DNA of 37,747 bases from positions 1-37,747 of the IMG/VR virus record IMGVR_UViG_3300037692_000053. One strand, 5' to 3'. Below, in pieces: positions 3,771 through 32,602 of this stretch. This DNA comes from a virus. Taxonomy: Duplodnaviria > Caudoviricetes. Made by a program: the position numbers and the translations under genes. A model generated the notes under the pieces. It saw only the letters and a list, made by a program, of their open reading frames with translations. It was not told the origin of the DNA and did no database searches. How positions within the stretch are numbered: position 1 is the stretch's first letter; each line of letters begins with the position of its first letter.

Positions 3771-3799
3771 TTGCTACGTTTAATAATTTAATACAGCAA
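3771..3799. repeat. 29-bp dispersed palindrome copy 1
   Basis: TTGCTACGTT-TAATAATTT-AATACAGCAA, directly after the stop of 3800..4381. Confidence 0.9.
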
Positions 3800-4381
3800 T
3801 TACTCTTCAACTACATGCCCATTACACTGGGCCAACTCTATTGCTTTGTCCTTAATCCGTTGAAGGTCATCAGATGTGAAGTGTGCATGAAGGTTACGAG
3901 TGTTGATAGTTTGAGCAGCCTTACCTAAATGGCGATCCAGAACTCCATTACATTCTTTGAGGATTGAGTTAGCAGAAGCAGTCTGACCATGAACAGTACC
4001 GTCTTCAAGAACTTCCCTGATGCATTTCAAAGCGATGGGGGCTAAGTCCATAATGTCCTTAGCTAAATCAATACAGCCAACGTCTCTAGCAGCGCCCATA
4101 AGAGAAAGACGTTCCTTAACGACTGGTGAGTTACGTACATTACTGACTTGCATCACCGAGAGGGACATTGAGTCAGCGATGTCTTTATTGGTTTCACCCA
4201 ACAAAATGCGCCTCGCGATCTCATGATGACTTTCCCACATCTCTGAGACTTGCCAACCTTTCTTTTTTCCAGATTTAAACCCTTTAGACTTTCGCCCGTC
4301 AGTCCTATCTGACTGCGAATACCTGTCACCATAATCATAAGTAACATGTTCCCCCTGTGCATTAATTGTATTAGTTTCCAC
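3800..4381 (-). CDS. HTH protein, probable terminase small subunit
   Basis: HTH-like HHEIARRILLGETNKDIADSMSLSVMQVSNVRNSP followed by a helical region; first gene of the leftward virion arm; GTG start with GGAG RBS. Confidence 0.5.
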   Translation of the reverse strand: METNTINAQGEHVTYDYGDRYSQSDRTDGRKSKGFKSGKKKGWQVSEMWESHHEIARRILLGETNKDIADSMSLSVMQVSNVRNSPVVKERLSLMGAARDVGCIDLAKDIMDLAPIALKCIREVLEDGTVHGQTASANSILKECNGVLDRHLGKAAQTINTRNLHAHFTSDDLQRIKDKAIELAQCNGHVVEE

Positions 4382-4472
4382 GTTATTCTCCCTATCTTAT
4401 TGCAAATTGTAGAGCTGGTCCAGAATGTCCTCACGCCCTACGGTCGTGCAAGATTCTCCTATCATTCCAATC

Positions 4473-4501
4473 ATATTAACATATGGTGAGTGTGGTGTCA
4501 A
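4473..4501 (-). promoter_or_regulatory. Sigma70-type promoter driving the leftward (late) arm
   Basis: Minus strand TTGACA-17 bp-TAATAT with TGn extended -10, ~90 bp upstream of 4381. Confidence 0.65.
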
Positions 4502-4720
4502 TGTAAAGTTTGGTGTAAGTAATCAACCTTAAGTCAGACTCCTATACATATGATCCTCATACAAATTATCCTCATATGAATGGTAGGACTTGTGGAGAAT
4601 GTCCCCATGTCCTCATTATACATATCGTAAGAAGAGGAAGAATCGACCCACGTACTTCGTCCGTGCGATGAATGTGTTTAGAGCCTCAGCTCCTAAACGG
4701 GCCCACCGTATGAAGACCTG

Positions 4721-4749
4721 TTGCTATGTTGAATTAATAAACATAGGAA
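4721..4749. repeat. 29-bp dispersed palindrome copy 2
   Basis: TTGCTATGTT-GAATTAATA-AACATAGGAA in the divergent intergenic region. Confidence 0.9.
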
Positions 4750-5152
4750 TGTCAGGTATCTTAATGAGTATGCACAAATTGGTACATATAACAAACATAC
4801 CCCGCTGCTTATATGAATGGGTAGAGGTATGGGCCACTGGACAATCCCCCATTACCCCGGCCTGATTCCAGGGCAACGAGATTGTTGTTGCATTTACATC
4901 CACACCATGTTACAATTCATTTAACAATTGAGGACACACCTAATAACGGGTGAATATTTAACATGAGGAGAACCAGCCATGAAATTATACCACGTTATAA
5001 ATTGTTACGGTACGATAGTAGCCAGTAGTTCTAATTATGATATATGTTTGAGGCATATGTACAAATTATCAAAACGTGGATATGGTAACATATCCAATTA
5101 TTCAATCCGGTTAGTAATAGTTAAATAACAATTAAATTAAAGGAGAATAGCC

Positions 5153-5536
5153 ATGACAACCAACAATACAACCAACAATACCACAGTTGAATTTAAAATT
5201 GCTATGGATATCGACGCCAAACGTAAAGGAGATGTGGAAACTGTGAAGTTTCTCATATCGTTTAAAGGTGTGGATGATGACATTATCAGGAAAGCTGCCA
5301 TCGCGAATCAGATTGTCGGGTGGCAATCACAAATACGGAGTCATTGGGATGAGTTTATCAAAGGGGAGTTACCTGAAATAGTGACATTTGGACAGCCCCT
5401 GTTTGCATCAACCAAACGTACCATTACACGTCCTCCTACGGATGCTGAGATTCAGGCTCAAGCCGTGAATATGTTCAAAGGCCGGACACCTGAAGAGATT
5501 ATGTATTTTGTGCAGAATGGGAAGTTTGAGGAATAA
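5153..5536 (+). CDS. Hypothetical protein, first gene of rightward arm
   Basis: 127-aa ORF with AAGGAG RBS, followed by a hairpin. Confidence 0.8.
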   Translation: MTTNNTTNNTTVEFKIAMDIDAKRKGDVETVKFLISFKGVDDDIIRKAAIANQIVGWQSQIRSHWDEFIKGELPEIVTFGQPLFASTKRTITRPPTDAEIQAQAVNMFKGRTPEEIMYFVQNGKFEE

Positions 5537-5551
5537 ATTTTAATAAGCCTG

Positions 5552-5576
5552 GGACAGGAGGAATGTTCTCCTGTCC
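5552..5576 (+). terminator. Stem-loop after 5153..5536
   Basis: GGACAGGAG-gaatgtt-CTCCTGTCC perfect 9-bp stem; weak U tail. Confidence 0.5.
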
Positions 5577-5593
5577 TTCATGAGGAGAAAGTC

Positions 5594-5794
5594 ATGTCTA
5601 ACACAATGATTGTTGAGTTTGCTCACCGACGTATTCATGAGTTGACTGAGGAATTGAAGGATATGGAGAGGATTATTGAGGCATATACTTCTTATGATGA
5701 TACAGGTGTACCGAACGTAGTGAGGGTGAATGGAATGGAATGGAAAAATGGAAAAATGGAATGTCCAAATGTCATACCTACGTTCAATATGTAA
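5594..5794 (+). CDS. Hypothetical protein
   Basis: 66-aa ORF with GAGGAG RBS; 3' part overlaps the left arm of the inverted repeat. Confidence 0.55.
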   Translation: MSNTMIVEFAHRRIHELTEELKDMERIIEAYTSYDDTGVPNVVRVNGMEWKNGKMECPNVIPTFNM

Positions 5795-6212
5795 CTCTCT
5801 CCCATAATTGTAAATGGATGAATACAATTATGGGGGAAATGATAGATAAAAAGCTTGTTGAAAAAAAAAATAAAAAATTAATATAGATATATATATATAT
5901 CTATTCATTTATACATATATTTACATATTTACATTATTATATTATAGTTAACTGTCTTATTTATATATTACTATAAATTATATTAGATATGTATTTAATC
6001 ATTTATAATTATGGGGGAGAGCGTGATAATTTGAACACATATGACATAATGACATATGGATGCATTCCATTTTTCCATTCACAACATTCACAACATTATT
6101 ACATTCATGTCAGCTACGCTGATAATCAACGCTGATAATTACTGTGTAACATAGAATGTTACAAATTGATACATAAGAAGTGTTACAAATTGATACAATG
6201 TTACACGTGTAA
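5738..6212. other. Candidate replication origin: ~75-bp imperfect inverted repeat around an AT-rich core, plus short direct repeats
   Basis: 5738-5815 aligns with the reverse complement of 6001-6080; core has A10 and (TA)n; TGTTACAAATTGATACA at 6157 and 6181; ACGCTGATAAT at 6116 and 6129. Confidence 0.55.
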
Positions 6213-6241
6213 ATATGTGAAATTGTTCATGTTTATATTTA

Positions 6242-6270
6242 TTGACAAATACTCTCCCCCATGATAATAT
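6242..6270 (+). promoter_or_regulatory. Sigma70-type early promoter
   Basis: TTGACA-17 bp-TAATAT with TGn extended -10, upstream of 6318. Confidence 0.75.
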
Positions 6271-6317
6271 AACACAATAACCATTCACATCTCATTTCAT
6301 GGGTAAAGGAGAACATC

Positions 6318-6821
6318 ATGTCAATAGAACCAGTAGGAAGTTTAACAGGTAAGAAAATGCTAAAATCAGCAGAAGAATTTATGCAAAAGTTAATTGACAA
6401 ACATGGGGATAATATTCCTGAAAATCTTTTGAAAGCACACAGTGATTTAGTACAAAAAGGAGAAGAACAACTAATAAAATGTTTAGGAGAATTACCTAAA
6501 GAAATTGTACAACCTCAGGCACCTAAAGAAGTTGTCCAAAACATTAACACAATCAAAAGAGAGTTGAATAAGAATGTTAAATATATCCTTAAACCTTTCT
6601 TCAAAAGTAAAAAACGTTTGGCCAGGCTCAGTCAAGATAACACTGGTATTTGGTGGGCTAATGAAGCCCGAGACTTACGTGATTTAGGTAATTGGTATAT
6701 GTTAGGGGATAAAGATAAACTCATTGAATATAAAAATGAGTCAGAGCAAATTACTGGTATGAAATTAAAATTTGTTGAAGTAAATAAATTTGGCTTTGAA
6801 ACAACTGCGGAGATTCTTTAA
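6318..6821 (+). CDS. Hypothetical early protein
   Basis: 167-aa ORF, AAGGAG RBS. Confidence 0.8.
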   Translation: MSIEPVGSLTGKKMLKSAEEFMQKLIDKHGDNIPENLLKAHSDLVQKGEEQLIKCLGELPKEIVQPQAPKEVVQNINTIKRELNKNVKYILKPFFKSKKRLARLSQDNTGIWWANEARDLRDLGNWYMLGDKDKLIEYKNESEQITGMKLKFVEVNKFGFETTAEIL

Positions 6822-6823
6822 CT

Positions 6824-7177
6824 ATGAAACGTTCAGAGAAGAGTAAAAATAGATATAAACAACGCCAAATACGTCTGAAAGAAATAGAAGAATTGAATCG
6901 TCCCAGACAGAATCGAGAAGTTATGGGATATCTAGTCCACATTGAAACTGGTGAAATAGCAGGAAAGATTGCTTTATATATTGAAGAACAAATTTTCTGG
7001 TTTAATCCAATTCTGCCTGCACGTACAGGGTATAAGAAGTCTTATTATGCTGATAATAGATGGATAAAAGTGGAAGGAGGTGCGGAGAAAATAGCATCAT
7101 TTGAACAGCAAGGATTATATGTCGAACCTCCTAAAGACGGAATGGATAAAATCAAGTTCATGCATGAACTATATTAA
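6824..7177 (+). CDS. Hypothetical early protein
   Basis: 117-aa ORF, coupled to upstream gene, GGAG RBS. Confidence 0.75.
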   Translation: MKRSEKSKNRYKQRQIRLKEIEELNRPRQNREVMGYLVHIETGEIAGKIALYIEEQIFWFNPILPARTGYKKSYYADNRWIKVEGGAEKIASFEQQGLYVEPPKDGMDKIKFMHELY

Positions 7178-7193
7178 TTGAAGGAGCATCCAG

Positions 7194-7472
7194 ATGACTA
7201 ACCCCAACTACACCAATGCCCTAAACAAACTCGTCACCAAAGGTGACACTTGGAGCATCCCCAGTCAACAGCATCTTCAGGAAGGTGACACAGGTGGACC
7301 ACAAGTCAACACCATCAAAGAAATTCTTAAGTTGTGGGCAGCCCTAACTGTAATTGCCCTGGTCATTCTCACCTGCATTTACTCCCTACTCATTGAGGTA
7401 AGTGAACCAGGCACCACAGGACGAACCCTGAAAGTAGTATTGGTGACAGGTTGGGAATGGTTGCTGCGTTAA
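7194..7472 (+). CDS. Hypothetical membrane protein
   Basis: 92 aa; one hydrophobic segment LWAALTVIALVILTCIYSLLI; AAGGAG RBS. Confidence 0.65.
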   Translation: MTNPNYTNALNKLVTKGDTWSIPSQQHLQEGDTGGPQVNTIKEILKLWAALTVIALVILTCIYSLLIEVSEPGTTGRTLKVVLVTGWEWLLR

Positions 7473-7489
7473 ATTAATGAATGCAGCAA
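7461..7489. repeat. 29-bp dispersed palindrome copy 3
   Basis: TTGCTGCGTT-AAATTAATG-AATGCAGCAA, overlapping the stop of 7194..7472. Confidence 0.9.
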
Positions 7490-7502
7490 TGTGCTCGTCA
7501 GC

Positions 7503-7572
7503 AGGGCTGACTCACGATTATGGGGGAGTAGGGCTGACTCACGATGCAGTTTGAGTAGACTGATTCACAAAT
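7503..7572. repeat. 27-bp-period tandem repeat (~2.5 units)
   Basis: AGGGCTGACTCACGAT at 7503 and 7530; degenerate AGACTGATTCACAAAT at 7557. Confidence 0.7.
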
Positions 7573-7633
7573 TACAATTAACTTATGAACCTCACAGCAT
7601 AAGCTAATCAACTTAACATTAGGAGAAATCACC

Positions 7634-7831
7634 ATGAACTTAAAAGAATTGAAAGAAAATCTTAGTAAAGAAATCTTCGGACAAACTAAACAAGAAGCAT
7701 GTAATGAGGGAATTTGCATCTCATGTAAACAGCCTGCAATTCCTAAATGTTATTCTCAGGCTGGCTTACGTGAGTATCAAATCTCTGGGATGTGTGAAGA
7801 GTGTTTTGACAAATTGTTTGAGGAGGGCTGA
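7634..7831 (+). CDS. Small Cys-rich (Zn-binding) phage protein
   Basis: CISC...REYQISGMCEECFD; AGGAG RBS. Confidence 0.75.
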   Translation: MNLKELKENLSKEIFGQTKQEACNEGICISCKQPAIPKCYSQAGLREYQISGMCEECFDKLFEEG

Positions 7832-7998
7832 TGAATCTCCGAGTTATCTTCATCTCAGACATCTTCACCATTATCTTTGGAACATATATTAAGGCACGTG
7901 AAGAAATGGTCATACGTTATGGACGTAACTGGTCTTTCCAATATCCCTCAGCAGAAAAGGCCGGAGTGGAAAGATTCAACTTAAAACATGTAAATTAA
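7831..7998 (+). CDS. Small hypothetical protein (55 aa, not in ORF track)
   Basis: TGATG overlap with the upstream stop; MNLRVIFISDIFTIIFGTYIKAREEMVIRYGRNWSFQYPSAEKAGVERFNLKHVN. Confidence 0.65.
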   Translation: MNLRVIFISDIFTIIFGTYIKAREEMVIRYGRNWSFQYPSAEKAGVERFNLKHVN

Positions 7999-8011
7999 GG
8001 AAGAAATCAGC

Positions 8012-8224
8012 ATGTGTCTAAACCCAAAGAAACTAAAAATAAGTCCTAAGCGACAACTCAGCATCCTCAAATCTCAGGAAGAATTCTCACATCGTCTCCG
8101 CCAGTCAAACTGGTCTTCACCCACTGCTGATGTGCTGTTCAGATTGGCCGCCCTGGCAGCATTCACAGATGGTAGGTCAGACCGTCAGGTGTTTAATTTG
8201 GCAAAACTTAATGAAGGGAGATAA
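8012..8224 (+). CDS. Hypothetical protein
   Basis: 70-aa ORF with AAGGA RBS. Confidence 0.5.
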   Translation: MCLNPKKLKISPKRQLSILKSQEEFSHRLRQSNWSSPTADVLFRLAALAAFTDGRSDRQVFNLAKLNEGR

Positions 8225-8228
8225 GGAT

Positions 8229-8528
8229 ATGAAAAAAGAATTTAAAGAAGACCGAAGACAAGATAAACCAAGTTTACATTTACTTTATGTTAAATGGGCT
8301 GTGGTGCATCTTAAAGAATTACATAAGATGTTAAATAAGTTACATAAATTTAGTAATGGTAATCTACTCTCAGTCACTTTTTGTTTACAAGAAGAAATTA
8401 AAAAACTTGTAAATGAAAATGCTGCTTATAATGATGCCCAACGAATTCTGGAGAGTGTTGATAAGAAATACAGAATCTATGTAAAGAGTTTAGATGTACT
8501 TGATTATGAAGCTGCTGAAGAAGAATAA
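8229..8528 (+). CDS. Hypothetical protein (start revised from 8130)
   Basis: GGAG/AAGGA RBS precedes the in-frame ATG at 8229. Confidence 0.65.
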   Translation: MKKEFKEDRRQDKPSLHLLYVKWAVVHLKELHKMLNKLHKFSNGNLLSVTFCLQEEIKKLVNENAAYNDAQRILESVDKKYRIYVKSLDVLDYEAAEEE

Positions 8529-8599
8529 TTTCTCCCTGCTCCTCAGCAACTCAACTCACCCTGCGGGGCTCGGTTGGGTTGTTGTAGAGTGTGGAGAAA
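8529..8599 (+). other. Long irregular RNA stem-loop (possible RNase III site or small RNA)
   Basis: TTTCTCC pairs with GGAGAAA; CAGCAACTCAAC pairs with GTTGGGTTGTTG using G-U pairs; fills the intergenic gap. Confidence 0.6.
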
Positions 8600-8630
8600 C
8601 AAATATTAACTTAACTTAAAGGAGTAAGTT

Positions 8631-8867
8631 ATGGGCCAAGCAAAGAGAAGAGGTTCTTATGAACAACGTAAGGAATCTTCAATACAGAAAATTTTAGATA
8701 AGAAAATCAAACTTAAACTTCTGGAGGATAATTTCCAATTCAACACTCCAATATTCTACAAAATGACTAAAAGAATAGTTGATCTGAATAGAAGAAAAAG
8801 GTCTAAAGATGTTAGTAATATATTAGAAATTTTAATTCGTTCTATGTTTCCATTAGGAGGTTATTAA
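8631..8867 (+). CDS. Hypothetical basic protein
   Basis: 78 aa, MGQAKRRG start, AAGGAG RBS. Confidence 0.7.
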   Translation: MGQAKRRGSYEQRKESSIQKILDKKIKLKLLEDNFQFNTPIFYKMTKRIVDLNRRKRSKDVSNILEILIRSMFPLGGY

Positions 8868-8868
8868 C

Positions 8869-9093
8869 ATGTCTAAACCCCATTCATACATACCCCTACT
8901 TCAGGGTAAATTCCTAATAACAGTCACAACTGAATGCACCATCCCTGATCACTACCAAGGTGCAGAGATTGAGATATGTATCCGTCACAAACAGTCGTTC
9001 ACCGACTCAGCAAACTGTCTAGCAACAGAAATCTCTGACTTACTCCGTAAGTCCTTATGTCATGTTCAACAATCATCTGAAGAGGAAGGATAA
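8869..9093 (+). CDS. Hypothetical protein
   Basis: 74 aa, AGGAGG RBS. Confidence 0.7.
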   Translation: MSKPHSYIPLLQGKFLITVTTECTIPDHYQGAEIEICIRHKQSFTDSANCLATEISDLLRKSLCHVQQSSEEEG

Positions 9094-9096
9094 GTT

Positions 9097-9309
9097 ATGA
9101 ATATAACTGAAGCAGTAAATATAGCTTGTAAACAACCTACTTTATTAGATGCATTATCTTTTATATGTGTCTGGGAATCTGAAAGAATAGTCAAACAAGC
9201 ACTTTCTAATTATAGAAGTGGTTTAAGTGGTTCAAATGGTACTATGTGGGATACTTGCTTTAAAGTATGCTTAAAAAACGTTTTAGAAAATTATAAGGAA
9301 AAGGTATAG
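9097..9309 (+). CDS. Hypothetical protein (AT-rich)
   Basis: 70 aa, tightly packed in the operon. Confidence 0.7.
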   Translation: MNITEAVNIACKQPTLLDALSFICVWESERIVKQALSNYRSGLSGSNGTMWDTCFKVCLKNVLENYKEKV

Positions 9310-9311
9310 TT

Positions 9312-9848
9312 ATGTCAAAACTGGAACAAATGAAAACACGTGAAGCAACTCACGCCCTCAGCACTAGGGTGGACGCTAGATACTTAGCCACCCTAATGTT
9401 ATTCTGGCGTGATCAACAGTGTCTCCCCACCTCCCTATCTGAACTTACCCGTCTAAGTTTGGAGTCCTTTGCTGAATTCCTTGTAAGTAATGGAATGGTA
9501 GAATTTGTGGAGACTCACGAAGCTGCTCTGGAAATCATGAAAGGTTTGGGAATGAATCCTAAACGTGTCAACTCTAAGTATCTGGCCCAGGCCATCCTGA
9601 AATCTTCAGCAGATATTAATCTCTCCTTCCTTAATAGTCCTGTTGTAGACCACAAGCACAAACTCACAGTGCAGGAGGCTGCGGGAGTCTCATCTATCGA
9701 CGTCAGTAGGGTAATTTCGGCAATGCAGGAATCTGAATCCACTTCTGCCTCAGACCGTGTAAAGGCTGCGCAGGAGAGGGCTGAAGAATTCACCCGTAGT
9801 CTTGGTGAAATTCCTAAAGAAATCAAACCTGTTGATGATGCGGAGTAA
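9312..9848 (+). CDS. Hypothetical protein, possible ribbon-helix-helix regulator
   Basis: 178 aa; N-terminal THALSTRVDARYLATL...SLSELTRLSLE has a strand-helix-helix pattern. Confidence 0.6.
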   Translation: MSKLEQMKTREATHALSTRVDARYLATLMLFWRDQQCLPTSLSELTRLSLESFAEFLVSNGMVEFVETHEAALEIMKGLGMNPKRVNSKYLAQAILKSSADINLSFLNSPVVDHKHKLTVQEAAGVSSIDVSRVISAMQESESTSASDRVKAAQERAEEFTRSLGEIPKEIKPVDDAE

Positions 9849-9851
9849 CTT

Positions 9852-10004: not shown

Positions 10005-10124
10005 ATGACTGAACAAGAAATTAAATTAGAAATTCTCAGAGATCACATAGAACTGGAACAACTATGTTCTACTTACATTCTCCCTATAGCATTTATATGC
10101 TTAATTCTTCTAATCATTATTTAA
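10005..10124 (+). CDS. Small membrane protein (39 aa, not in ORF track)
   Basis: AAGGAG RBS; hydrophobic C-terminus ILPIAFICLILLIII. Confidence 0.5.
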   Translation: MTEQEIKLEILRDHIELEQLCSTYILPIAFICLILLIII

Positions 10125-10136: not shown

Positions 10137-10320
10137 ATGAAACTGTGCAAAGACTGCTTGCATCTCTCTAAATTGAAAACTGTAACTACTTCACCATACA
10201 CAAAGTTTTAGAACCTGTCAACGGAACTCAAATCTCTGTACCTCTCCACCCTTCAAATTCTCGGGGAATGAAAGTTACTGCGGCGCCAGTGGGCGCTGGT
10301 TTGCTTCATTAAATAAATAA
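10137..10320 (+). pseudogene. Frameshifted small Cys-rich gene (or two sequencing errors)
   Basis: AAGGAG RBS; MKLCKDC.. / ..NCNYF..EPVNG.. / ..YCGASGRWF lie in three successive frames. Confidence 0.5.
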
Positions 10321-10329
10321 ACATAGCAA
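10301..10329. repeat. 29-bp dispersed palindrome copy 4
   Basis: TTGCTTCATT-AAATAAATA-AACATAGCAA. Confidence 0.9.
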
Positions 10330-13360: not shown

Positions 13361-13389
13361 TCGCTTCATTAAATAAATAAACATAGCAA
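13361..13389. repeat. 29-bp dispersed palindrome copy 5
   Basis: TCGCTTCATT-AAATAAATA-AACATAGCAA, immediately after the ligase stop. Confidence 0.9.
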
Positions 13390-17353: not shown

Positions 17354-17382
17354 TTGCTACATTAAATAAATAAACGTAGCAA
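17354..17382. repeat. 29-bp dispersed palindrome copy 6
   Basis: TTGCTACATT-AAATAAATA-AACGTAGCAA. Confidence 0.9.
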
Positions 17383-17442: not shown

Positions 17443-17751
17443 ATGTCACTCCCATCTTTAGATAATGACTTTCGCCCCAGGTTCTCCGGTGAAATCACCC
17501 CTGCACAGGCCCAAACCCTGTCACAAATCCTCCCTCATGGAATGAAGAAACATCTCGTCCAGGTCTTCGTTAACGGAGTCATTGATCTCCACGCTCGTGG
17601 CGGCCAGACCGCTCTTGGTGCCATAGTTTCAGAATTCATCTCAATCAACCAACTTCTCCTCATTGGCCTCAGAGTTAGTAGGGAGAGGAAGATTAAAGAG
17701 TTGGAGAAGAAATTGGAGGAACTGAGAAATGTACAAAGTAACAATTCATAA
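17443..17751 (+). CDS. Hypothetical protein, possibly DNA-binding
   Basis: 102 aa, AAGGA RBS. Confidence 0.7.
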   Translation: MSLPSLDNDFRPRFSGEITPAQAQTLSQILPHGMKKHLVQVFVNGVIDLHARGGQTALGAIVSEFISINQLLLIGLRVSRERKIKELEKKLEELRNVQSNNS

Positions 17752-18055
17752 CCTAAAAGGGACAGTATTACCTTCTAAATCTTATGATTTTCGTATTGAT
17801 AGGAAATCACCATTAGGTAATCCTTTCTTTATGAAAGGTGAGTATGAACGTCATATAGTATGTGACAAATACGAAGAATACTTTAATAAGAAAGCTTTAT
17901 ATAATCAGCATGTTAAAGTATATCTTAATAAAATCTTAACAGAATTAAAAACTAATAAAAAAGTGAGACTTTTCTGCTGGTGTGCACCTAAACGTTGCCA
18001 TGCTGAAACAATTAAAAAGTGGTTATTAGAAGAGGTGCAGAATGGCCACACTTGA
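17729..18055 (+). CDS. DUF4326 family protein
   Basis: IDRKSPLGNPF...LFCWCAPKRCHAE signature. Confidence 0.85.
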   Translation: MYKVTIHNLKGTVLPSKSYDFRIDRKSPLGNPFFMKGEYERHIVCDKYEEYFNKKALYNQHVKVYLNKILTELKTNKKVRLFCWCAPKRCHAETIKKWLLEEVQNGHT

Positions 18056-18308
18056 CACCTTATCTATCTCTATAACCAAACGTCCTTACCAAGACCTCGT
18101 AACCCTTATCTCAAACATTCGTGCTCAACGCCGTAAGCGTCCTGAGCCTAAGGCGCGTAAGGGCACTGCAAAGTCCTCACGCAATGTGAGTAAAAAGAAT
18201 CCTAAACAACAAGACCTATTTGCCCTAGCCAGTTCTATGTCTAAAAATGACAAAGATGCAATGGCTGCAACTCTTATGAACATGATGAATGAAGGAGGTA
18301 AGTTATGA
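18042..18308 (+). CDS. Hypothetical basic protein
   Basis: 88 aa, GAGG RBS. Confidence 0.7.
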   Translation: MATLDTLSISITKRPYQDLVTLISNIRAQRRKRPEPKARKGTAKSSRNVSKKNPKQQDLFALASSMSKNDKDAMAATLMNMMNEGGKL

Positions 18309-18673
18309 TATTTAAACTAAGCCCTAAAGGACTAAAATTGGCTGAGGAATTTGAACAGTTGTTTGGGGACGTAGAATGCACATGTGCTCTATACGATCCT
18401 GATGTTGAAGAGGTGTGGTTCTGTGCCAAATGCAAGCATCCCGGCAACCCTCAGAACATCCAAGAAGACGACTCTAACATAACCAACATCTTAATCTCAA
18501 AACAGGACGTGTTTGAATCTACTGCATGTTCTCATGTGTGGGGCTACACTAATAACCCACTCAGATTAATAACATCTCAGGAACAATTTAAATCTGTACC
18601 TGATCTGGAAAATATAATCCCTTTCCCTTACTGCCCTTACTGCGGTATAAAACTTCCTAAGGTATCTGTATGA
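18305..18673 (+). CDS. Cys-rich hypothetical protein
   Basis: CTC, CAKC, CPYC motifs; GGAGG RBS. Confidence 0.7.
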   Translation: MIFKLSPKGLKLAEEFEQLFGDVECTCALYDPDVEEVWFCAKCKHPGNPQNIQEDDSNITNILISKQDVFESTACSHVWGYTNNPLRLITSQEQFKSVPDLENIIPFPYCPYCGIKLPKVSV

Positions 18674-20013
18674 AACTAGAAACTCCTGAAATTCCCCTCT
18701 CCTCAATTGAACTCGGTTCACGCTACAGAGACGATTATGGGGATATTCCTCAACTAATCCACAGCATCAAAAAGAATGGACTAATCACACCTATCGCTGT
18801 AGGTGTAGCTGACAAGATCAACATCCCTCGTACCACAAACCTTCCTTACATCCTCCTTGCTGGTGGGCGCCGCATGAAAGCCCTCACAGAGATGGGCTGG
18901 ACTATGATCCCTGTTCGAATCTACGACCAACCTATCTCCATCCTTGACCTCCGTTCTATTGAATTGGCCGAGAATTTCGATCGTAAGGAAATGACCTACC
19001 CTGAACAACTTGCTCTAATGAAAGAGATAGATGATTTACAGATGGCAATCCACGGCCCTAAGATTGCGCGTAGTGCAGGTGCTCCTGGTTGGAGTCAAGC
19101 TGATACAGCCAAACTTCTTAAAAAATCTCCGGCCTCTGTAACTATTGACCTTCAACTGGCCCGTGCTATCGAAGATCATCCTGAACTCCAGTTGGATAAA
19201 TGTAAGAATAAGGCCGAAGCTCTGAAGCGTCTTAAGAATGTAACCAAAATTGTAACCAACAGTCTTCAAGCCCAAACTTACACCAAAACTGTAAACGGCA
19301 CAGGTTCCTCTGATCAAATGTTCCGTAAGCTCTGTTCCAACTACATCATTGCTGACTGTCGTACTATAATGAAAGGTATGCCCTCCAACTCACTCAACTT
19401 CATTGAAATAGATCCACCTTACGCAATCGACCTACCCTCCGTTAAATCAGATAACGAATGTATTGGATACAATGAGGTAAAGGTTAAGGATTATGAACCT
19501 CTAATGAAGACTATCTTATGGGAATCCTATCGTCTTCTTAAGGAAGGTTCATGGCTAATTGTCTGGTTTGCTGCTGACCCTTGGTTCCAGCCAATGTCTG
19601 AGTGGATCAGGGATGCAGGTTTCAAGATGAACCTCCTCCCTGGAATTTGGACTAAACCTCAAGGTCAAACTGCTCAACCGGAAACTTATCTGGGAAACTC
19701 TTATGAAATGTTCTTCTACGCCCGTAAGGGTAAGGCACGTCTACAAAAACCTGGCCGCTCAAACATCTTTGACTTCAAACCTGTGAATCCATCTCTAAAA
19801 TACCATCCGACACAACGCCCCCTGGACCTCATGAAGGAAGTCTATTCTACCTTCGCTTCCCCTAACTCCAACGGCTACATCCCTTTTCTTGGCTCAGGAG
19901 TTGGCCTCCTCACTGCACATGACCTTAGTATGAATATGATAGGCACCGACCTTACGCAAACTTTCAAGGATGGGTACATCTTGGAAATTAAAAAGTTAAC
20001 TGGAGCAAACTAA
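18670..20013 (+). CDS. ParB/Spo0J-like CTPase + HTH fused to beta-class amino (N6A/N4C) DNA methyltransferase
   Basis: ParB: SIKKNGLITPIAV, LAGGRRMKA, ENFDRKEMT; HTH: WSQADTAKLLKKSPASVTIDL; MTase: DPPY, HPTQRP, PFLGSG. Confidence 0.9.
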   Translation: MKLETPEIPLSSIELGSRYRDDYGDIPQLIHSIKKNGLITPIAVGVADKINIPRTTNLPYILLAGGRRMKALTEMGWTMIPVRIYDQPISILDLRSIELAENFDRKEMTYPEQLALMKEIDDLQMAIHGPKIARSAGAPGWSQADTAKLLKKSPASVTIDLQLARAIEDHPELQLDKCKNKAEALKRLKNVTKIVTNSLQAQTYTKTVNGTGSSDQMFRKLCSNYIIADCRTIMKGMPSNSLNFIEIDPPYAIDLPSVKSDNECIGYNEVKVKDYEPLMKTILWESYRLLKEGSWLIVWFAADPWFQPMSEWIRDAGFKMNLLPGIWTKPQGQTAQPETYLGNSYEMFFYARKGKARLQKPGRSNIFDFKPVNPSLKYHPTQRPLDLMKEVYSTFASPNSNGYIPFLGSGVGLLTAHDLSMNMIGTDLTQTFKDGYILEIKKLTGAN

Positions 20014-21334: not shown

Positions 21335-21363
21335 TTCCTACGTTTAATAATTCAACACAGCAA
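21335..21363. repeat. 29-bp dispersed palindrome copy 7
   Basis: TTCCTACGTT-TAATAATTC-AACACAGCAA. Confidence 0.9.
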
Positions 21364-24443: not shown

Positions 24444-24472
24444 ATGCTACATTCAATAATTCAACACAGCAC
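24444..24472. repeat. 29-bp dispersed palindrome copy 8
   Basis: ATGCTACATT-CAATAATTC-AACACAGCAC. Confidence 0.85.
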
Positions 24473-26482: not shown

Positions 26483-26752
26483 ATGACTACAGATATTTAT
26501 GTACACGTGGAATATGATATAGTTAAAGATTTATTTAAGGTAGATTCAAATACTAGAGAACCTAAAGATATCATAATGAATTTTATAAGAATTCAAATGG
26601 GGGCAGGTAAAGATAACACACCTGCTAATATACAAGATATTTATAATATAAAAGTTCATCTTGATCTATCAGAAGATATCTTTACCTGTACTTATGACTG
26701 TGGTAATAAGGAATTAAGAGAAGGAATATTAATGAGATATGTAGAATCTTAA
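26483..26752 (+). CDS. AT-rich hypothetical protein, last gene of rightward arm
   Basis: 89 aa, AAGGAG RBS; stop overlaps the convergent stop (TTAA). Confidence 0.7.
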   Translation: MTTDIYVHVEYDIVKDLFKVDSNTREPKDIIMNFIRIQMGAGKDNTPANIQDIYNIKVHLDLSEDIFTCTYDCGNKELREGILMRYVES

Positions 26753-29700
26753 AACCCCTCAGTACTGAGTCCTCCTTCTAGTCCTCCATCTAACTGTGGT
26801 GGCCTAGGAGGAGTTCCCTTACCAGCCTTCACATATATGCCAAGTAGGATCTCATACCAATCTCCACCATTACTACTAGTCCTTATACTCTTCGCAATCT
26901 GATTGGTCATAGGAATTCCGAATCCCAATCCCAATACCTTACCAACTAATAGTTTGGTCTGCAACTTCTCCTTATCAGTCATATACTCCCAGTCCAAACT
27001 CTTCACTGCAGCCTCTAATGCTTCAGGTGCCTGAGTTGCCAATTCCCCTAACGGACCTAATAAACTAGTACTATACTTAGCACTACCACCAATGATAGGA
27101 ATGACTTCCAAAAATTCCATCATGGCCTTAGCCACAGCTGTCCTATCAGAATCCCCTTCACCTTTACTTTCCCCAAACGCTTGAATAGGTGAAGGATTCG
27201 GAGCATCTATTCCGGCCAACTGAAATGTCATATTGACCAACGCAGCACCTGTTAAATATCTGAGTACTCTCTTAGTCTGTACAGTCTTAGTTATGTCTGG
27301 ATTCTTAATCCCCAATAGATCCCGTGCAATGAAGTTAAAATCAGCTATAGCATACGTCTGCAACATCGTCAGCCACTTCACACTACTTACGCTCTGTATA
27401 GGACTCACCGCACCCCTGATTCCTGCACCCTGAGTTTTCATAACTAAGTCATCTGCCCACTGCACAGCCTTCCCTTCATCCAACTTCAGAACCCTCTTAG
27501 CATACCCATACCCTGCATTCCATCCACTCTCTGCTACCATAGCATCAACAAAGTTCATTGGGGCAGAAGTAATATCATAAGCCATTTTCCTCACACCTAC
27601 CACCTTACCCAGGCTCATAGCCTCAGCTATCTCGGTCAGGATTAACTCGGCACTTCTTACACTAAGTACATTAGATTTCAGTGCTGCTTCAGTCTTTCCT
27701 CTAAGCATGGGTTTCTCTAACATCATCTTACCCACGCCACTAATAACATCCCTAAATGTAGTAAGACTAGCAACTCCCTTGAGTGCCGTCGGCTGAACCA
27801 TTACTGTGCGGAGATTCCCAAAGATCATACCTGCTACTACATTTTTATGTAGGGTGGAGAATCCTCTAGCCACCGTAGGCAACTTTGAGGTGAGTGCAGC
27901 AGTTGAAGGATCAATACCTAAAATTTCATCTGACCATTCCAACAAAAGTTTTCCTAATCCAGGATTCCTGTCCATCAACCTGAAACCTTTCTTTAACTTC
28001 ACCCCTTTCACCTTCACAGGCCCAACCGCAGCTTCCTTCGCCAGTGCTGCAATTGGTGCTACATGAATCTCCTTCATGGCATAGCCCATGTAAGTCTCGA
28101 AGGCATTAAATATGTCTAATTCTAGGGGAATATCTGTAATCTTCCTTGGCTTATCGAATGGAAAGAAAGTTCCTTTAAAGTTCTGCAATGCTCCGTTAAT
28201 CTTCGAAGGTGGGGCAGTCAACAATGAGTCGTTGACTCCAGCTTTCCTTAGAGCATTCTGCTTGTGAATAAATGGGAAGTAATTATCTAATTTCGGCAGG
28301 GGCTTAAGTCCTATATGACTCCTAACATAATTAATTCTATCCCACAACTTATCATACCTCTCCCTCATCTGTGTAATGACCTCAGCCATCTTAGGTGTTA
28401 AGGGTGGAATCTCTTTAATCCCATCAGCAGCCAATGCACTTAATCCACCCTTCTGATCTGCAATAGCATTGATGGACACAGCGCGGCGTTCCTCAGTGGT
28501 GAGGGTCTTAGCAAAGTCCTTAACCTCCTTCACCACAACCCTACGTTCTTTCTCAGAATCTGTTAACTTAGCTAACCACTTATCAAAAAACTCTTCCTTA
28601 ACTCCCTTACCATATCTCTCAAATGCATGAATACGGGTCTCAGTTCCTGCCATGAACTTACCCAATGGACTCGTCCCCCACTCTAACTTACGTGCGGAGT
28701 GAATTGCCTGAAATGTTTTAGCTGTCAGTGGTACATTCTTACGCCCCTTACTATTAGTACTGTTTCTATGCATCACTACAGTACTGGGATCAGGATTAAT
28801 GATCCCTTCAATAATAGGATCAGCTTTCCTAACTTCATCCTGCATTTGTGGTAGCTGCAACATCTGCTCCATTATCTTCCTTGCAGTCTCAGGTTCCACT
28901 CCTATCATATCCAGCATTTCTTCTACTGACTTACCTAGGGACTTAGCCTTCTCCTCAATCCGTTTAAGCTTATCCGCTGCAATCTTAAGGTCCGTAACAT
29001 CTACAGAACCTCTCTCATTATTAAACACATCCCACAGATTCCTAGTACCAGTATCACTAAGTTCCCAATAAGGAGAATCTTCATCAGTAAGACGTTCTGT
29101 GCTTCGATCTCTCTTACCACCTTCTCCAACTTCTTCCAATGAGTCCCAGGCATAATCTTCTAGCTCCTTAAATTCAGGTTCTATATACCAACGTTTGGTC
29201 AACGGATCTTGCGTAGGTCTACCCAACGTTCCAGTTTCTGCAGCGTACTCAACCAGCTCTTCGTAAGTTTTAAAAGTTGCATACTTATCATCTACAATGG
29301 CAAGGTCTGATTCCTTCATAGGTGTCTTTGTTTGATGCTTTTGTACTATATTAAAATCTTTCTTATTAAATACTCTGATAACACTAGCCCCATCTTCAAC
29401 TTGCCAATTACCTTTATAACCTAGATCCTCCAAAGTAAACTTGCTAGCAGGTCTTTCATATACAGCATAGTTACCATCTTCTAAAGACTTCCTTAACATA
29501 CCTTCATTAATAATATTATACTTCTTTTTATATTCCTTAATAAAAGCTTCTACATGTTCAGGATTCCTAGCATCAAATATTTTATCTTTGGGTATTTTTA
29601 CTTCATGAATATTCTTACCAAATTTACTTGCTACTTTAGGATCTTCTGTAGCAAAATATCCTCTATGTCCATCAGGCATATCAGCAGAAGATTTAAGTCT

Positions 29701-31278
29701 AACATTATTACCATGGTATAAGGTATAAGAATTTTCCTGCGTTAAATTATTAAACGCAGCATCCTCATTCAACTTCTCTACCTTCTTAGTCTTCCACTGT
29801 GAATACATCTGCTGAAGGTCTTGAGCTGTACGTGCCTTAACTTTAGGAGTCTCAGGAACTTTAGTCTCCTCTGCCAACTTCTCAGCAGCTTTCCTCTCCT
29901 CCAACTTCTGCTTAAGATCACTTCTGATTTGACGTAAGTCTTGTTCCTTCACAAAATTCAGAGGAAGTACTGGAGTCTCAATCGTTGGGAGACCCTTAGG
30001 TTCTAACAACATTTCTGGTGAAGCCTGTCCTACATACTTCTCCGCTACTTGTTCTCTACTCAGAACAGGTTCCTTAAGAGCTGAAGTAATCTTATCAAAT
30101 TTAGTCTTAACTTCAACTGGGTCTGTAGTCAGGGTTTGAAAATTTCCTTTAGTCTCTCCATCTCGCCATTCATGAACAGTGATTTCTCCAATCTTGTTGG
30201 GTCCCAGATATTCCATCTGAGGAGAAATTTCCCTACCTACCTCCTCAGGAGTTTTAATCTGCTCAACTGGTTTAAGTCCTTCTTGAACTTCCTCAACAGG
30301 TAGAATCTCTGAAGGTTTATTAACTTGATTAATATCCTGTAATATAGGAGCCTGAGCATCTCGTTCCTCCTTAAGTTTCTGAACTAACTTACGCACCTTA
30401 CCTTCGGCCTTAGATATCTTATTCATATCCAGAGTCCCAATATCTTCACCATGGTCCCTTACCACGTCTAGGGCTTTCTGATAAGAAGCTCTCCTAGGAC
30501 CCGTCCTCTTGTCTACTTCCTTCTGTAACCCTTCCAAGATGAATTGATTCTCAGGAAACTTAGCAACAGGAACTTCACCCTTCTTAACTTCTGGCTTAAG
30601 TTTTCCTACTTGACTCAACACATCTGTAAGTATATCAGGTTTAACATCAGGAGTAGCAACTTTAACTTCTTCAATCTCCTTCGGAGTTAGTTTCTCCCCT
30701 CTCTTAATCTTCTTAGCCACATGAGGCAATCCTACCAGAGCTGAATCAAACACAAACTGACCTGCCTTAACTTGTTCATCTGAGCCCCCTAGGGCCTTAA
30801 CTCCAGTCTCAATTCCTTCATGTGCAACTGTAAATGGACTAGCTGCAACTTCAGCCACAGTCTGACCAAATCTACTCTTAGGTTTAAATGAGAAGGATTC
30901 CATAAAGGAGTCCATCCCCTCCTTCGCTGCAGCCAAGCCGGCTGTAGGTTTACCTGCTAATACACCTCCCAATACAGTTGGAGCTTGACTAAGTACAGCA
31001 GGGATGAAACTCGCAGCACCACTAATCACTGCACCAGGCCCTTCAACAAGTCCCTGAGCCACATCAGCACCCTCTCTAAGCAGGGTCTGTCCAGCTTCCT
31101 TTAACATCGGAACTAAATCTCTTGTCTGGGGGACATCGACAGAGGGGTTAGTAGATGTTAATTGAGGAATAGGTTGCTGGACAGATTTATCTATTCCGCT
31201 CTCCGTAGGAGCACTATACTTCTGCCAAGGACTTACACCTTCACTTTCTTTATTATACTTCTCCCACGGATTACTCAT
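26749..31278 (-). CDS. Large internal virion/ejection (polyvalent) protein with ADP-ribosyltransferase-like domain
   Basis: 1509 aa; PWEKY/PWQKY N-terminus; internal LYHG...GYFATED...FG...IFD...LGYKG...IRVF; last of the ejection-gene cluster. Confidence 0.75.
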   Translation of the reverse strand: MSNPWEKYNKESEGVSPWQKYSAPTESGIDKSVQQPIPQLTSTNPSVDVPQTRDLVPMLKEAGQTLLREGADVAQGLVEGPGAVISGAASFIPAVLSQAPTVLGGVLAGKPTAGLAAAKEGMDSFMESFSFKPKSRFGQTVAEVAASPFTVAHEGIETGVKALGGSDEQVKAGQFVFDSALVGLPHVAKKIKRGEKLTPKEIEEVKVATPDVKPDILTDVLSQVGKLKPEVKKGEVPVAKFPENQFILEGLQKEVDKRTGPRRASYQKALDVVRDHGEDIGTLDMNKISKAEGKVRKLVQKLKEERDAQAPILQDINQVNKPSEILPVEEVQEGLKPVEQIKTPEEVGREISPQMEYLGPNKIGEITVHEWRDGETKGNFQTLTTDPVEVKTKFDKITSALKEPVLSREQVAEKYVGQASPEMLLEPKGLPTIETPVLPLNFVKEQDLRQIRSDLKQKLEERKAAEKLAEETKVPETPKVKARTAQDLQQMYSQWKTKKVEKLNEDAAFNNLTQENSYTLYHGNNVRLKSSADMPDGHRGYFATEDPKVASKFGKNIHEVKIPKDKIFDARNPEHVEAFIKEYKKKYNIINEGMLRKSLEDGNYAVYERPASKFTLEDLGYKGNWQVEDGASVIRVFNKKDFNIVQKHQTKTPMKESDLAIVDDKYATFKTYEELVEYAAETGTLGRPTQDPLTKRWYIEPEFKELEDYAWDSLEEVGEGGKRDRSTERLTDEDSPYWELSDTGTRNLWDVFNNERGSVDVTDLKIAADKLKRIEEKAKSLGKSVEEMLDMIGVEPETARKIMEQMLQLPQMQDEVRKADPIIEGIINPDPSTVVMHRNSTNSKGRKNVPLTAKTFQAIHSARKLEWGTSPLGKFMAGTETRIHAFERYGKGVKEEFFDKWLAKLTDSEKERRVVVKEVKDFAKTLTTEERRAVSINAIADQKGGLSALAADGIKEIPPLTPKMAEVITQMRERYDKLWDRINYVRSHIGLKPLPKLDNYFPFIHKQNALRKAGVNDSLLTAPPSKINGALQNFKGTFFPFDKPRKITDIPLELDIFNAFETYMGYAMKEIHVAPIAALAKEAAVGPVKVKGVKLKKGFRLMDRNPGLGKLLLEWSDEILGIDPSTAALTSKLPTVARGFSTLHKNVVAGMIFGNLRTVMVQPTALKGVASLTTFRDVISGVGKMMLEKPMLRGKTEAALKSNVLSVRSAELILTEIAEAMSLGKVVGVRKMAYDITSAPMNFVDAMVAESGWNAGYGYAKRVLKLDEGKAVQWADDLVMKTQGAGIRGAVSPIQSVSSVKWLTMLQTYAIADFNFIARDLLGIKNPDITKTVQTKRVLRYLTGAALVNMTFQLAGIDAPNPSPIQAFGESKGEGDSDRTAVAKAMMEFLEVIPIIGGSAKYSTSLLGPLGELATQAPEALEAAVKSLDWEYMTDKEKLQTKLLVGKVLGLGFGIPMTNQIAKSIRTSSNGGDWYEILLGIYVKAGKGTPPRPPQLDGGLEGGLSTEGF
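29734..29762. repeat. 29-bp dispersed palindrome copy 9 (intragenic)
   Basis: TTCCTGCGTT-AAATTATTA-AACGCAGCAT, read on the minus strand as DAAFNNLTQE. Confidence 0.85.
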
Positions 31279-32030
31279 TACATTTTCTCCCAGTTGTTTG
31301 GATCAGCAGGATTGCCACCCTTGAATTTATACCCACTATCAACAGTGCCTACAGGAGGGGTACCACCAGGATCAGCACCTGCCTCCTTAGACTCTTTCGG
31401 CACCTTGACTAATTCCTTCTTACCTGTAAAAGGAACCTTCCAACTTCCAATAGTCAAAGGTGGTGTGACCTGCTCAACAAACTCTGCTTCTGGATTCTGC
31501 TTGTTATACAAATCCTTATACACCTGTAGGGTCTCAGAATCAACTTCTCTCCCAGCAACTTTACCAGTTTGCAGCACAGTTTCATACCCAGCTAACTTAC
31601 TATCCCTAGCATTTAACTTATCACCCAACAGTACATCTCGTAGCATAGCAGTATTAGGATCTTCTATAGCTCCCCATCCTGCAGGAGGCGGATTGTTACC
31701 AGTAAAATATCTAGGTAAACCATCAGGACTTTGAAACCATCTGCCACCAGGATCTGCTCCTCCACCTACTGGAGCCTTATAAGCATCAACCTGTCCTACT
31801 ACTTCACCGTTAACTATACGATCTTTAACTAACTTCCCATCCTTAACATACTCAGAACTAAGAGTTGTTGTTGGCCGTTGTGCAGCAGCTTCAGGTCGAT
31901 TCATCAATTCTAACAACCTCAGTTGTCTATCCTTCTCCTGATCCAACTCCCTACCTTTTAGTGCCCTAATATCAGTCGCTCCTCCCAACAACATACTTAA
32001 ACTCTTCGCGTCTAGCCCTCTTAGGTCCAT
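31278..32030 (-). CDS. Putative internal virion/ejection protein
   Basis: 250 aa; C-terminal GTVDSGYKFKGGNPADPNNWEK motif; position in cluster. Confidence 0.65.
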   Translation of the reverse strand: MDLRGLDAKSLSMLLGGATDIRALKGRELDQEKDRQLRLLELMNRPEAAAQRPTTTLSSEYVKDGKLVKDRIVNGEVVGQVDAYKAPVGGGADPGGRWFQSPDGLPRYFTGNNPPPAGWGAIEDPNTAMLRDVLLGDKLNARDSKLAGYETVLQTGKVAGREVDSETLQVYKDLYNKQNPEAEFVEQVTPPLTIGSWKVPFTGKKELVKVPKESKEAGADPGGTPPVGTVDSGYKFKGGNPADPNNWEKM

Positions 32031-32047
32031 CCCACCATCAGATGGAG

Positions 32048-32566
32048 CTACCCCAAAAGGGCTTTGGGAAAAGGGACAGAGTGTCCTCCTGTTTGTGTAG
32101 AGTTTGTTTGCATTTCAGCAAGTTGATTAGTTCCAAACTTTTGTACATTTGGACTATTCTTAATCGTAGTAGTAGTTCCGGTCGGACTAACAGAAGTTGT
32201 AAGACCATCAATCCCATCTTGACCCACCGGAGTAACACCTTTAAAAGTGTCCATGATATTCTGAAGTCCTGGATTAGAAGTCTGTTGTTGCTGGTAAGGT
32301 TGTACTCCTTGCAGCATCCCCTGTCCACCACCTAAAGTCTGCTGAAGGTTTACAGGCATCTGAGTACTTGCAGCATTCTGAGGATTCCCTCCTCCCAACA
32401 ACTGTCTCAACAACTGCTCAGTTGAATTTTGCCCCTGAACATTTTGAATAATTTGCGAAGGATCTAACGCCTCACCTACTGATCCACCCCTACCCAACGT
32501 ACTCCCTGCTTGACCTAACAGTTGAAGAAAGTTAGGATTTTGTAACAACTCTGTAAATCCAGCCAT
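32048..32566 (-). CDS. Putative internal virion protein (Q/G-rich)
   Basis: 172 aa, low complexity, GGAG RBS. Confidence 0.65.
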   Translation of the reverse strand: MAGFTELLQNPNFLQLLGQAGSTLGRGGSVGEALDPSQIIQNVQGQNSTEQLLRQLLGGGNPQNAASTQMPVNLQQTLGGGQGMLQGVQPYQQQQTSNPGLQNIMDTFKGVTPVGQDGIDGLTTSVSPTGTTTTIKNSPNVQKFGTNQLAEMQTNSTQTGGHSVPFPKALLG

Positions 32567-32573
32567 AATTTAC

Positions 32574-32602
32574 TCCCTGTGTTTAATAATTTAACATAGC
32601 AA
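32574..32602. repeat. 29-bp dispersed palindrome copy 10
   Basis: TCCCTGTGTT-TAATAATTT-AACATAGCAA; outer bases double as the GGGAG RBS of 32048..32566. Confidence 0.85.

Follow-up and report, generated by a model that had tools for sequence, protein, structure and literature searches.

The stretch of DNA described here (the window: the whole 37,747 bp analysed from IMG/VR record IMGVR_UViG_3300037692_000053) represents a 78% complete, podovirus-like virus genome, with a replication arm on the plus strand (ligase, exonuclease, a Sak4-like protein, polA with a uracil-DNA-glycosylase (UDG) domain, and primase) and structural genes on the minus strand. Ten copies of a 29-bp palindrome are dispersed over both arms (Table 1), and the plus strand also encodes a protein in which a ParB NTPase domain and a helix-turn-helix (HTH) are fused to a DNA methyltransferase. 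The palindromes are very probably parS-like docking sites read by this fusion protein, which is the predicted reader because of the array itself, its co-occurrence with the fusion gene, and the covariation of its bases with the recognition helix. The preliminary description of this sequence had named no protein; the evidence assembled below points to the ParB/HTH/methyltransferase gene of the window.

Table 1. Window coordinates of the palindrome copies, the fusion gene and associated genes (HTH, helix-turn-helix; ORF, open reading frame; RHH, ribbon-helix-helix).
Feature	Position	Strand	Context or content
Copy 1	3771..3799		Abuts stop of small-terminase-like gene (3800-4381, minus strand); orthologous site in G005, L004, L014, L025
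Copy 2	4721..4749		Divergent intergenic region between the two arms
Copy 3	7461..7489		Overlaps stop of ORF 7194-7472
Copy 4	10301..10329		Directly after terminator-like stem (10281-10298), 33 bp before ORF 10363
Copy 5	13361..13389		Abuts stop of DNA ligase gene
Copy 6	17354..17382		60 bp upstream of RHH-like/basic/ParB-methyltransferase cassette
Copy 7	21335..21363		Shortly upstream of DNA polymerase gene
Copy 8	24444..24472		Between polymerase and primase genes
Copy 9	29734..29762		Within 1509-aa gene, at about residue 510, edge of variable linker
Copy 10	32574..32602		Between two minus-arm genes, adjoining ribosome-binding site of ORF 32048-32566
447-aa fusion	18670..20013	+	ParB NTPase ~1-118, HTH ~119-200, beta-class N6/N4 DNA methyltransferase ~222-440
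Fusion HTH	19096..19176	+	Helices 143-150 and 154-169; residue 154 codon 19129-19131
102-aa RHH-like protein	17443..17751	+	First cassette gene; judged by eye, no library match
88-aa basic protein	18042..18308	+	Middle cassette gene; no known family
1509-aa gene	26749..31278	-	Hosts copy 9 in coding sequence; no library match

All ten copies were found at the starts listed in the preliminary description, and the gaps between them (950, 2740, 2840, 3060, 3993, 3981, 3109, 5290 and 2840 bp) were reproduced. The pattern given there, with up to three mismatches allowed, has exactly 10 matches in the window, against a mean of 0.26 and a maximum of 3 in 100 dinucleotide shuffles. A symmetric position weight matrix (PWM) scores the ten copies at 31.9-38.9 bits and the next-best position at only -0.6 bits, so that the window holds no eleventh copy. 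The refined consensus is TTSCTRYRTTN-AWTWAWT-NAAYRYAGSAA, in which half-site numbering runs from the centre (RYR at -9 to -7, TT at -6 and -5). None of the copies is a perfect palindrome, with 3-6 of the 14 pairs mismatched in each. The near relative G005 (100% complete) contains 13 copies, ten of them orthologous to those of the window and three in the part missing from it. Differences between the window and G005 fall mainly at the 11 degenerate positions (28/110) and rarely at the 18 others (5/180).

The copies are spaced more evenly than chance would place them, as had been suspected from the gaps (coefficient of variation 0.35; p=0.0016 versus uniform placement, p=0.0012 versus random gene junctions, and 0/5000 versus junctions with at least 29 bp of room). 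Ten genomes taken together give the same result against uniform placement (Fisher p=4e-10), the largest gaps measure 5.3-7.8 kb in 10 of 11 genomes, and a site is at most 2.5 kb away for 99% of the DNA between the first and last copy of the window. With open reading frames (ORFs) called in this analysis, 68 of the 123 sites in 11 genomes lie no more than 20 bp from a stop codon; in a packed genome such junctions are where room exists. Sites also occur within the longest gene, which encodes 1176-2153 residues in different genomes and keeps a site in 8 of 11; these sites lie in a variable linker, and their position is not always the same. The product of this gene in the window is probably an internal virion protein, judging from its size and position.

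The proposal that the palindrome is a duplex protein-binding site rather than an RNA hairpin was borne out by pairing counts at RYR. On the transcribed strand of 23 sites from two genomes, these positions form 28 Watson-Crick, 27 A-C, 11 G-U and 3 other pairs, an excess of A-C over G-U opposite to that expected of a stable stem, and an intrinsic terminator or other structured RNA was rejected on this and the following grounds. Folding energies range from 0 to -11 kcal/mol with several near zero, no copy was called terminator-like within positions 3000-22000, and no tRNA and no Rfam family was matched in the window. Terminators or processing sites acting as RNA hairpins, which the palindromic form and the frequent location after stop codons might suggest, are therefore extremely improbable. 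Within the same interval 58 promoter-like matches were listed, none overlapping the seven copies located there, in a scan that is itself at chance level (50.3 expected). Mismatches in the early arm (7461-24472 and orthologues in nine genomes) are skewed to A-C (56 versus 17 G-U, p=5e-6), and those in the late arm are not (31 A-C versus 33 G-U); the early-arm bias might arise because early mRNA avoids hairpins or because the downstream half-site is the stronger one.

The motif was also sought in related phages, as the preliminary description had advised, and is present there in phage-specific versions. A de novo search of 13 genomes recovered a dispersed family of 28-29-bp palindromes in 11 of them, with 6-18 copies each, and no family palindrome in G014 and G016. 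The exact window pattern occurs in 39 viral and 67 metagenomic stretches, many of which are overlapping copies of the same contigs. An A/T centre is common to the family. Most phages have CT...AG as the outer part, about a dozen have AG...CT instead, and the inner positions are phage-specific (e.g., TTACA in G013, GGKGA in G018, TTCA in G011). The AG...CT outer class (L217, L233, L208, L378, L373, L241, L218, L215, L239, L278 and others) is found in more than one clade, and no single residue accounts for it after correction. The palindrome of G017 (L160-L162) is one base shorter (28 bp) with an even centre, and the centre in L200 is even as well.

Presence of the palindromes follows presence of the fusion gene. 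Among merged contigs of at least 18 kb that encode all three fusion domains, 77 of 79 pass the motif threshold, in a set that contains near-duplicates and with the family-type consensus judged by eye. Codon-repeat patterns can also exceed the de novo threshold (G014 61, L070 49, L081 38), which is why membership of the family type was decided by eye and negatives were scored again with 69 PWMs. A test for exact dyads has little value as a negative control, since it misses the window's own degenerate motif. One of the two misses, L267, has two family-type copies at the threshold, and the other, L345, has weak sites only. Several shorter loci missed de novo match the family PWMs (L220, L227, L271 and L376 at 29-36 bits, L374 at 28.9 bits), and L047, L213 and L380 give weak matches of 16-21 bits only. 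Five relatives without the fusion gene are also without an array: G014 (97% complete; best PWM score 17 bits), G016 (79% complete; 15.9 bits), L362 (12.6 kb; a single 20.9-bit match), and the more distant Kuura (16.6 bits) and PaP2 (17.5 bits). In 185,579 bacterial and archaeal genomes the exact pattern gave five single matches and no array. Sites of a host factor were considered and rejected, as a relaxed search of the five matching genomes yielded one exact site each, with the other matches near control in most.

The fusion gene is the last of a three-gene cassette (RHH-like, basic, fusion) that is present in all 11 motif-positive genomes, and across 140 contigs the ribbon-helix-helix (RHH) gene lies upstream of the fusion in 138 and the basic gene in 139. 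Three of the relatives that lack both the fusion and the array nevertheless keep one or both of the small genes: G014 probably retains both, as weakly matching ORFs of the RHH-like and basic types in the syntenic position (E 0.047 and 5e-4), G016 retains the RHH gene, and L362 retains the basic gene. Only the fusion therefore tracks the sites.

Profile comparisons match positions 5-200 of the fusion protein to Noc residues 4-191 (E 1.1e-15) and its C-terminal half to CcrM (E 7e-20) and other beta-class methyltransferases, and further matches include ParB, Spo0J and KorB. Pfam gives PF01555 at E 1.7e-13 and PF02195 at 25.8 bits (E 1.1e-5), just under the 26.3 cut-off. The AlphaFold2 model (10 sequences; mean predicted local distance difference test (pLDDT) score 79) opens with an NTPase strand at residue 7 with no helix before it, and continues through the NTPase fold, a short hairpin (~129-141), the two HTH helices listed in Table 1, a linker helix (181-210) and the methyltransferase. 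Foldseek matches of this model are CcrM (E 6e-14), Noc and ParB, with Noc the best structural homologue of the N-terminal half. Conservation was assessed in 69 phages, obtained from 93 contigs with all proteins by reduction at 85% identity and spanning 31 clades, each required to have a motif of at least three copies in the 25- or 27-bp register. The residues of the nucleoside triphosphate (NTP) pocket (R18, R20, G65, R67, R68, E98, E101, N102 and R105) and the GxRR and ENxxR motifs of the ParB NTPase fold are invariant in all 69. In the methyltransferase, where DPPY precedes FxGxG, DPPY is intact in 68/69 and the glycines and serine of FxGSG in 69/69. None of the 69 proteins contains a ParA-binding motif, and the C-terminal dimerisation domain of the ParB family is not present in the fusion, its place being taken by the beta-class methyltransferase. 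Relatives are numerous (1480 proteins at E 0.001 among 8000 scored candidates; encoded by 427 of 454 viral stretches), both counts including partial and distant matches.

Further evidence linking protein and palindrome comes from covariation between site bases and protein residues. Across the 69 phages, 1410 alignment columns (fusion, RHH, basic protein and polA) were tested, with prediction scored in held-out clades. Base -6 is predicted best by residue 154 of the fusion, at 17.6 bits; the second-ranked column reaches 6.3. This residue also came out on top in all 12 draws of one phage per clade, and its score was reached by none of 144 permutation maxima taken over all columns. His or Arg at this residue accompanies G at -6 in 22 of 23 resolved cases, Gln accompanies A in 2/2, and Pro, Lys, Asp, Ala, Val, Thr or Cys accompany T in 38/38; six phages are mixed. 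The window protein has Pro here. A polA tree with 68 tips requires at least 11 changes of base -6; at 61 of its 62 resolved tips, among them those of sister pairs such as L355/G019 and L302/L382, residue class and base agree. Of 30 held-out rows, nine have no de novo motif and two with an even register were set aside; the remaining 19 loci, whose odd-register family motifs were read by eye, all fit, three of them with a base other than T (His-G, Arg-G, Gln-A). Weaker associations in the same HTH are Arg144 with G at -7 (35/35, versus 16/34 for other residues), Asp153 with G at -4 (6/6), and Arg159 with C at -3 (6/7, plus 6/6 held-out loci), those for 144 and 159 being tabulated counts. In the window phage the RYR positions are probably free to vary because residue 144 is Ala and not Arg. 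By comparison, columns of the RHH protein predict no site base well (best 6.0 bits, at -6), and an identical RHH strand is found with very different sites.

The code at residue 154 matches a known specificity switch of ParB and Noc. This residue follows a G-x-S turn (G151 in 50/69, S153 in 48/69) and is modelled as the first of the second HTH helix. In ParB, R173 contacts guanine, the corresponding Q158 of Noc contacts adenine, and the residue after G170-K171-S172 switches specificity (PMC7383237; this and the other articles cited by PMC number were available in part, and statements drawn from them are limited to those parts). On the motif pattern and the AlphaFold2 model, rather than on a superposition, residue 154 appears equivalent to ParB R173.

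The reading preferred here, with a probability of roughly 55%, is that the fusion protein loads at the palindromes, closes on NTP, slides along the DNA and methylates the phage chromosome in cis. A dimer of the fusion would sit on the two-fold site with the HTH reading bases -3 to -8, and the hairpin preceding the HTH probably contacts the outer SCT, which would explain why the site is longer than parS (~16 bp). NTP-gated closure of the clamp at each site would be followed by sliding over a few kilobases, and the methyltransferase, in place of the ParB C-terminal dimerisation domain, would close the ring. A limited sliding range would account for largest gaps of only about 5-8 kb in all but one of the 11 genomes and for the site inside the longest gene. 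The absence of an array from host genomes would confine methylation to phage DNA, and the modification would likely shield that DNA from restriction enzymes or mark it as self. In its full form, a proposition that we regard as evenly balanced, a large family of lytic podoviruses would use a centromere-type sliding clamp to deliver an enzyme from a private 25-29-bp address repeated every 3-5 kb, as a self-marking system restricted to cis. The address could be reprogrammed through a few residues of one helix, leaving the host chromosome and rival phages with other addresses unmarked. The genome-level role proposed in the preliminary description survives in part, in that loading or protection fits the protein identified, and nothing specific to compaction, ejection or packaging was found.

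Several observations weigh against this reading or against the evidence for it. In the nucleotide pocket, the Box I region is R-x-R, which we take to be unlike the canonical form, and the nucleotide may therefore not be CTP. Spacing is not significantly even in G015 (p=0.28) and is borderline in G011 and G017 (0.05), and the largest gap of G017 reaches 11 kb. As to co-occurrence, the gene is lacking in only three close relatives, two of them incomplete; L345 (22 kb) has an intact gene with weak sites only; and Microcystis phage Mel-JY34 encodes a diverged ParB-methyltransferase with no HTH match to the profile and no array found. The code has an exception in L269 (Arg154 with T at -6), several of the held-out loci are close kin of training phages, the pairs 153/-4, 144/-8 and 142/-11 failed the maximum-over-columns permutation (91, 24 and 139 of 144), and in the phmmer alignment with the window protein the Noc HTH falls in another register. 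Phages that carry the gene and phages that lack it do not clearly differ in their avoidance of palindromic k-mers, examined as restriction-site avoidance. ParB-N6N4-methyltransferase fusions were among 50 proteins chosen in PMC12704722, and none of them is among the NTP binders named in the available portion of that article. Finally, a phage ParB has been described that activates a DNA-modifying enzyme without needing its NTP residues (PMC13229309), so clamp action is not a necessary property of a ParB domain; the activator in question lacks an obvious DNA-binding domain.

While loading followed by sliding and methylation is preferred, the same fusion could instead serve mainly as a KorB- or Noc-like factor for long-range transcription control or organisation of the infecting genome, with the methyltransferase secondary and the RHH or basic protein acting as a clamp-locking partner. 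This account is possible although clearly less probable. From its dispersed OB sites, KorB can reach promoters as far as 1.5 kb off by sliding and is locked by KorA (PMC11790492), and the consistent placement of the RHH and basic genes upstream of the fusion, the concentration of sites at gene junctions, the hint of transcription polarity in the early-arm strand bias, and the structural proximity of the N-terminal half to Noc all agree with such a role. It fits less well with a methyltransferase that is fused in one chain and whose motifs are intact in 68-69 of 69 proteins, with the persistence of the RHH and basic genes where fusion and sites are lost, and with sites that are evenly distributed, mid-gene included, rather than grouped at promoters. 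Gene regulation, set aside in the preliminary description, is possible given the many sites near stop codons and the capacity of KorB to act at a distance. Alternatively, the fusion may bind without sliding and methylate at or next to the site, or be switched on allosterically there, producing a local mark or timer. Covariation and co-occurrence fit binding without sliding, and the NTP-independent phage ParB mentioned above (PMC13229309) provides a precedent, yet the NTP-pocket residues are invariant, and neither the limit on gap size nor the site inside the longest gene would be explained; we consider this doubtful.

Readers other than the fusion are improbable. Sites that are operators of the RHH-like protein, of another phage regulator or of a host factor would agree with the copy just upstream of the RHH gene in the window (60 bp) and shortly upstream of it in several relatives, and with the almost constant presence of that gene where sites occur. 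The RHH columns, however, predict base -6 far less well than residue 154 of the ParB fusion (6.0 versus 17.6 bits), the same RHH strand occurs with very different sites, G016 has the RHH gene without sites, and a host factor is difficult to reconcile with phage-specific variants and with the lack of an array in any of the cellular genomes searched. Slightly less probable again are recombination or linker sequences driving module exchange, in the manner of tyrosine-recombinase sites (11+7+11): the length suits two arms with a 7-bp spacer, and sites coincide with several of the breakpoints in blastn comparisons of relatives (29733, 3783, 3799 and 17386). Against this, no phage integrase (PF00589) scored above the cut-off in any of five genomes (four complete), spacers differ among the window copies, the ten sites keep the same order in G000 and G005, covariation points to the ParB HTH, and conserved islands at gene junctions would mark breakpoints in any case.

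Among known systems, KorB is a plasmid partition protein and repressor with a ParA partner and no enzyme domain; Noc, which works without a ParA partner from sites scattered over the chromosome, has an N-terminal helix that binds membrane and acts to block division; and chromosomal and plasmid ParABS systems, including actinobacteriophage parABS and N15-type plasmid prophages, combine the ParB NTPase fold with an HTH reading a palindrome. Like KorB with OB of plasmid RK2, for which CTP-dependent sliding over ~1.5 kb is described, the fusion would be a ParB-family protein loading at palindromes away from its targets, in the company of small partner proteins (PMC11790492). It differs from KorB in its phage carrier, in the C-terminal DNA methyltransferase, in the 25-29 bp site, and in that neither integrase nor ParA was found in five genomes. 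Noc with NBS of Firmicutes (PDB 7ng0, 7nfu, 7ol9) is closest to the N-terminal 200 residues in both sequence and structure and shares a recognition-helix position that switches specificity (Arg-G, Gln-A; PMC7383237); unlike Noc, the phage protein starts directly with the NTPase fold, has no membrane-targeting helix in the model, and ends in the methyltransferase. ParABS partition was considered and rejected: ParA (PF13614) was above the cut-off in none of the same five genomes (one sub-threshold P-loop match occurs in G011), the ParA-binding motif is absent from the 69 proteins, and the sites tile the genome in an over-dispersed manner rather than clustering as a centromere. A further difference from the phages with ParABS is that the relative Desulfofustis phage LS06-2018-MD01 (MD01) is predicted to be strictly lytic (PMC10370329). 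The loading logic is thus like that of ParB-parS, KorB-OB or Noc-NBS, and the system as a whole is neither ParABS, with no ParA and with dispersed sites, nor Noc.

On the enzyme side, CcrM, M.RsrI and M1.HpyAVI share the fold and the order of DPPY before FxGxG. Unlike in CcrM, the stretch between the two matched blocks is ~20 residues shorter in the fusion, which may indicate relaxed specificity with targeting provided by the ParB half. Phage fusions of a ParB CTPase with an N6_N4 methyltransferase, with the same domain pair (PF02195 and PF01555), have been surveyed previously, where they are reported to be frequent and an anti-defence role is suggested; no binding site, recognition code or mechanism is given in the available part of that survey (PMC12704722). 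The ParB-dependent phage T-dioxygenases (PMC13229309) use a separate activator, unlike the present protein, in which the ParB domain is fused and comes with an HTH and predicted cognate sites. No description of these sites or of the code was found in open-access papers and preprints; what is new here is the sites and the one-residue code, the domain fusion being already known from surveys. That ParB proteins might steer DNA-modifying enzymes to particular loci is an idea cited as untested in PMC13229309, to which this family contributes the DNA sites, dozens of naturally occurring pairs of protein and site, and a code that depends on one residue. If sliding is true, the fusion would be a ParB clamp carrying an enzyme, by which a lytic phage modifies its own genome only, and it might be put to use for placing methylation across the few kilobases that surround a selected address.

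Other features of the window and its relatives were noted. A five-residue word in the 88-aa basic protein, QQDLF, resembles what we take to be a beta-clamp-binding motif, and a QQDLF-like word occurs in only 6 of 69 homologues. The polymerase gene (21579-24125) encodes a family A DNA polymerase carrying an N-terminal uracil-DNA-glycosylase-like domain. A second RHH-like protein, recognised by eye, is encoded at 9312-9848; clear homologues exist in 7 of 13 genomes and weaker matches in up to three further genomes, the motif-less G016 included. G016 (L158-L159) joins the structural arm of this phage family to a different replication module, with SSB-like and DnaB-like ORFs identified by eye and no polA within its 38 kb of sequence. 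The longest gene is mosaic: the ~130 residues after the in-gene site are without a match in G005 (window 29337-29733), and nucleotide similarity to G005 resumes exactly at that site. Paired copies 37-114 bp apart occur in G011 (2306/2382, 21285/21399 and 46470/46507) and in L188 (263/315). L004 (6971-7036) has a duplicated half-site 37 bp beyond a site, perhaps a relic of the way in which new sites originate.

The nearest named record is that of phage MD01 (OP947158), with 41% identity in the ParB fusion and a capsid protein 48% identical to that of G005. Its host is predicted via CRISPR spacers (PMC10370329), and the available portion of the pink-berry methylome article (PMC9296519) contains nothing on MD01 methylation. 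Nine palindromes with the core GTCCCA-N3-TGGGAC, not annotated in OP947158, are located at 242, 2244, 7681, 15467, 23052, 29963, 37106, 41274 and 42970. Additionally, Vibrio phage VS-ABTNL-3 (L387, MF497422) encodes a diverged ParB-methyltransferase (28578-29954) and has four dispersed CAATCG-N6-CGATTG dyads at 174, 6569, 23360 and 38801 (corrected p=5e-6); with its host named, this phage is a possible bench model.

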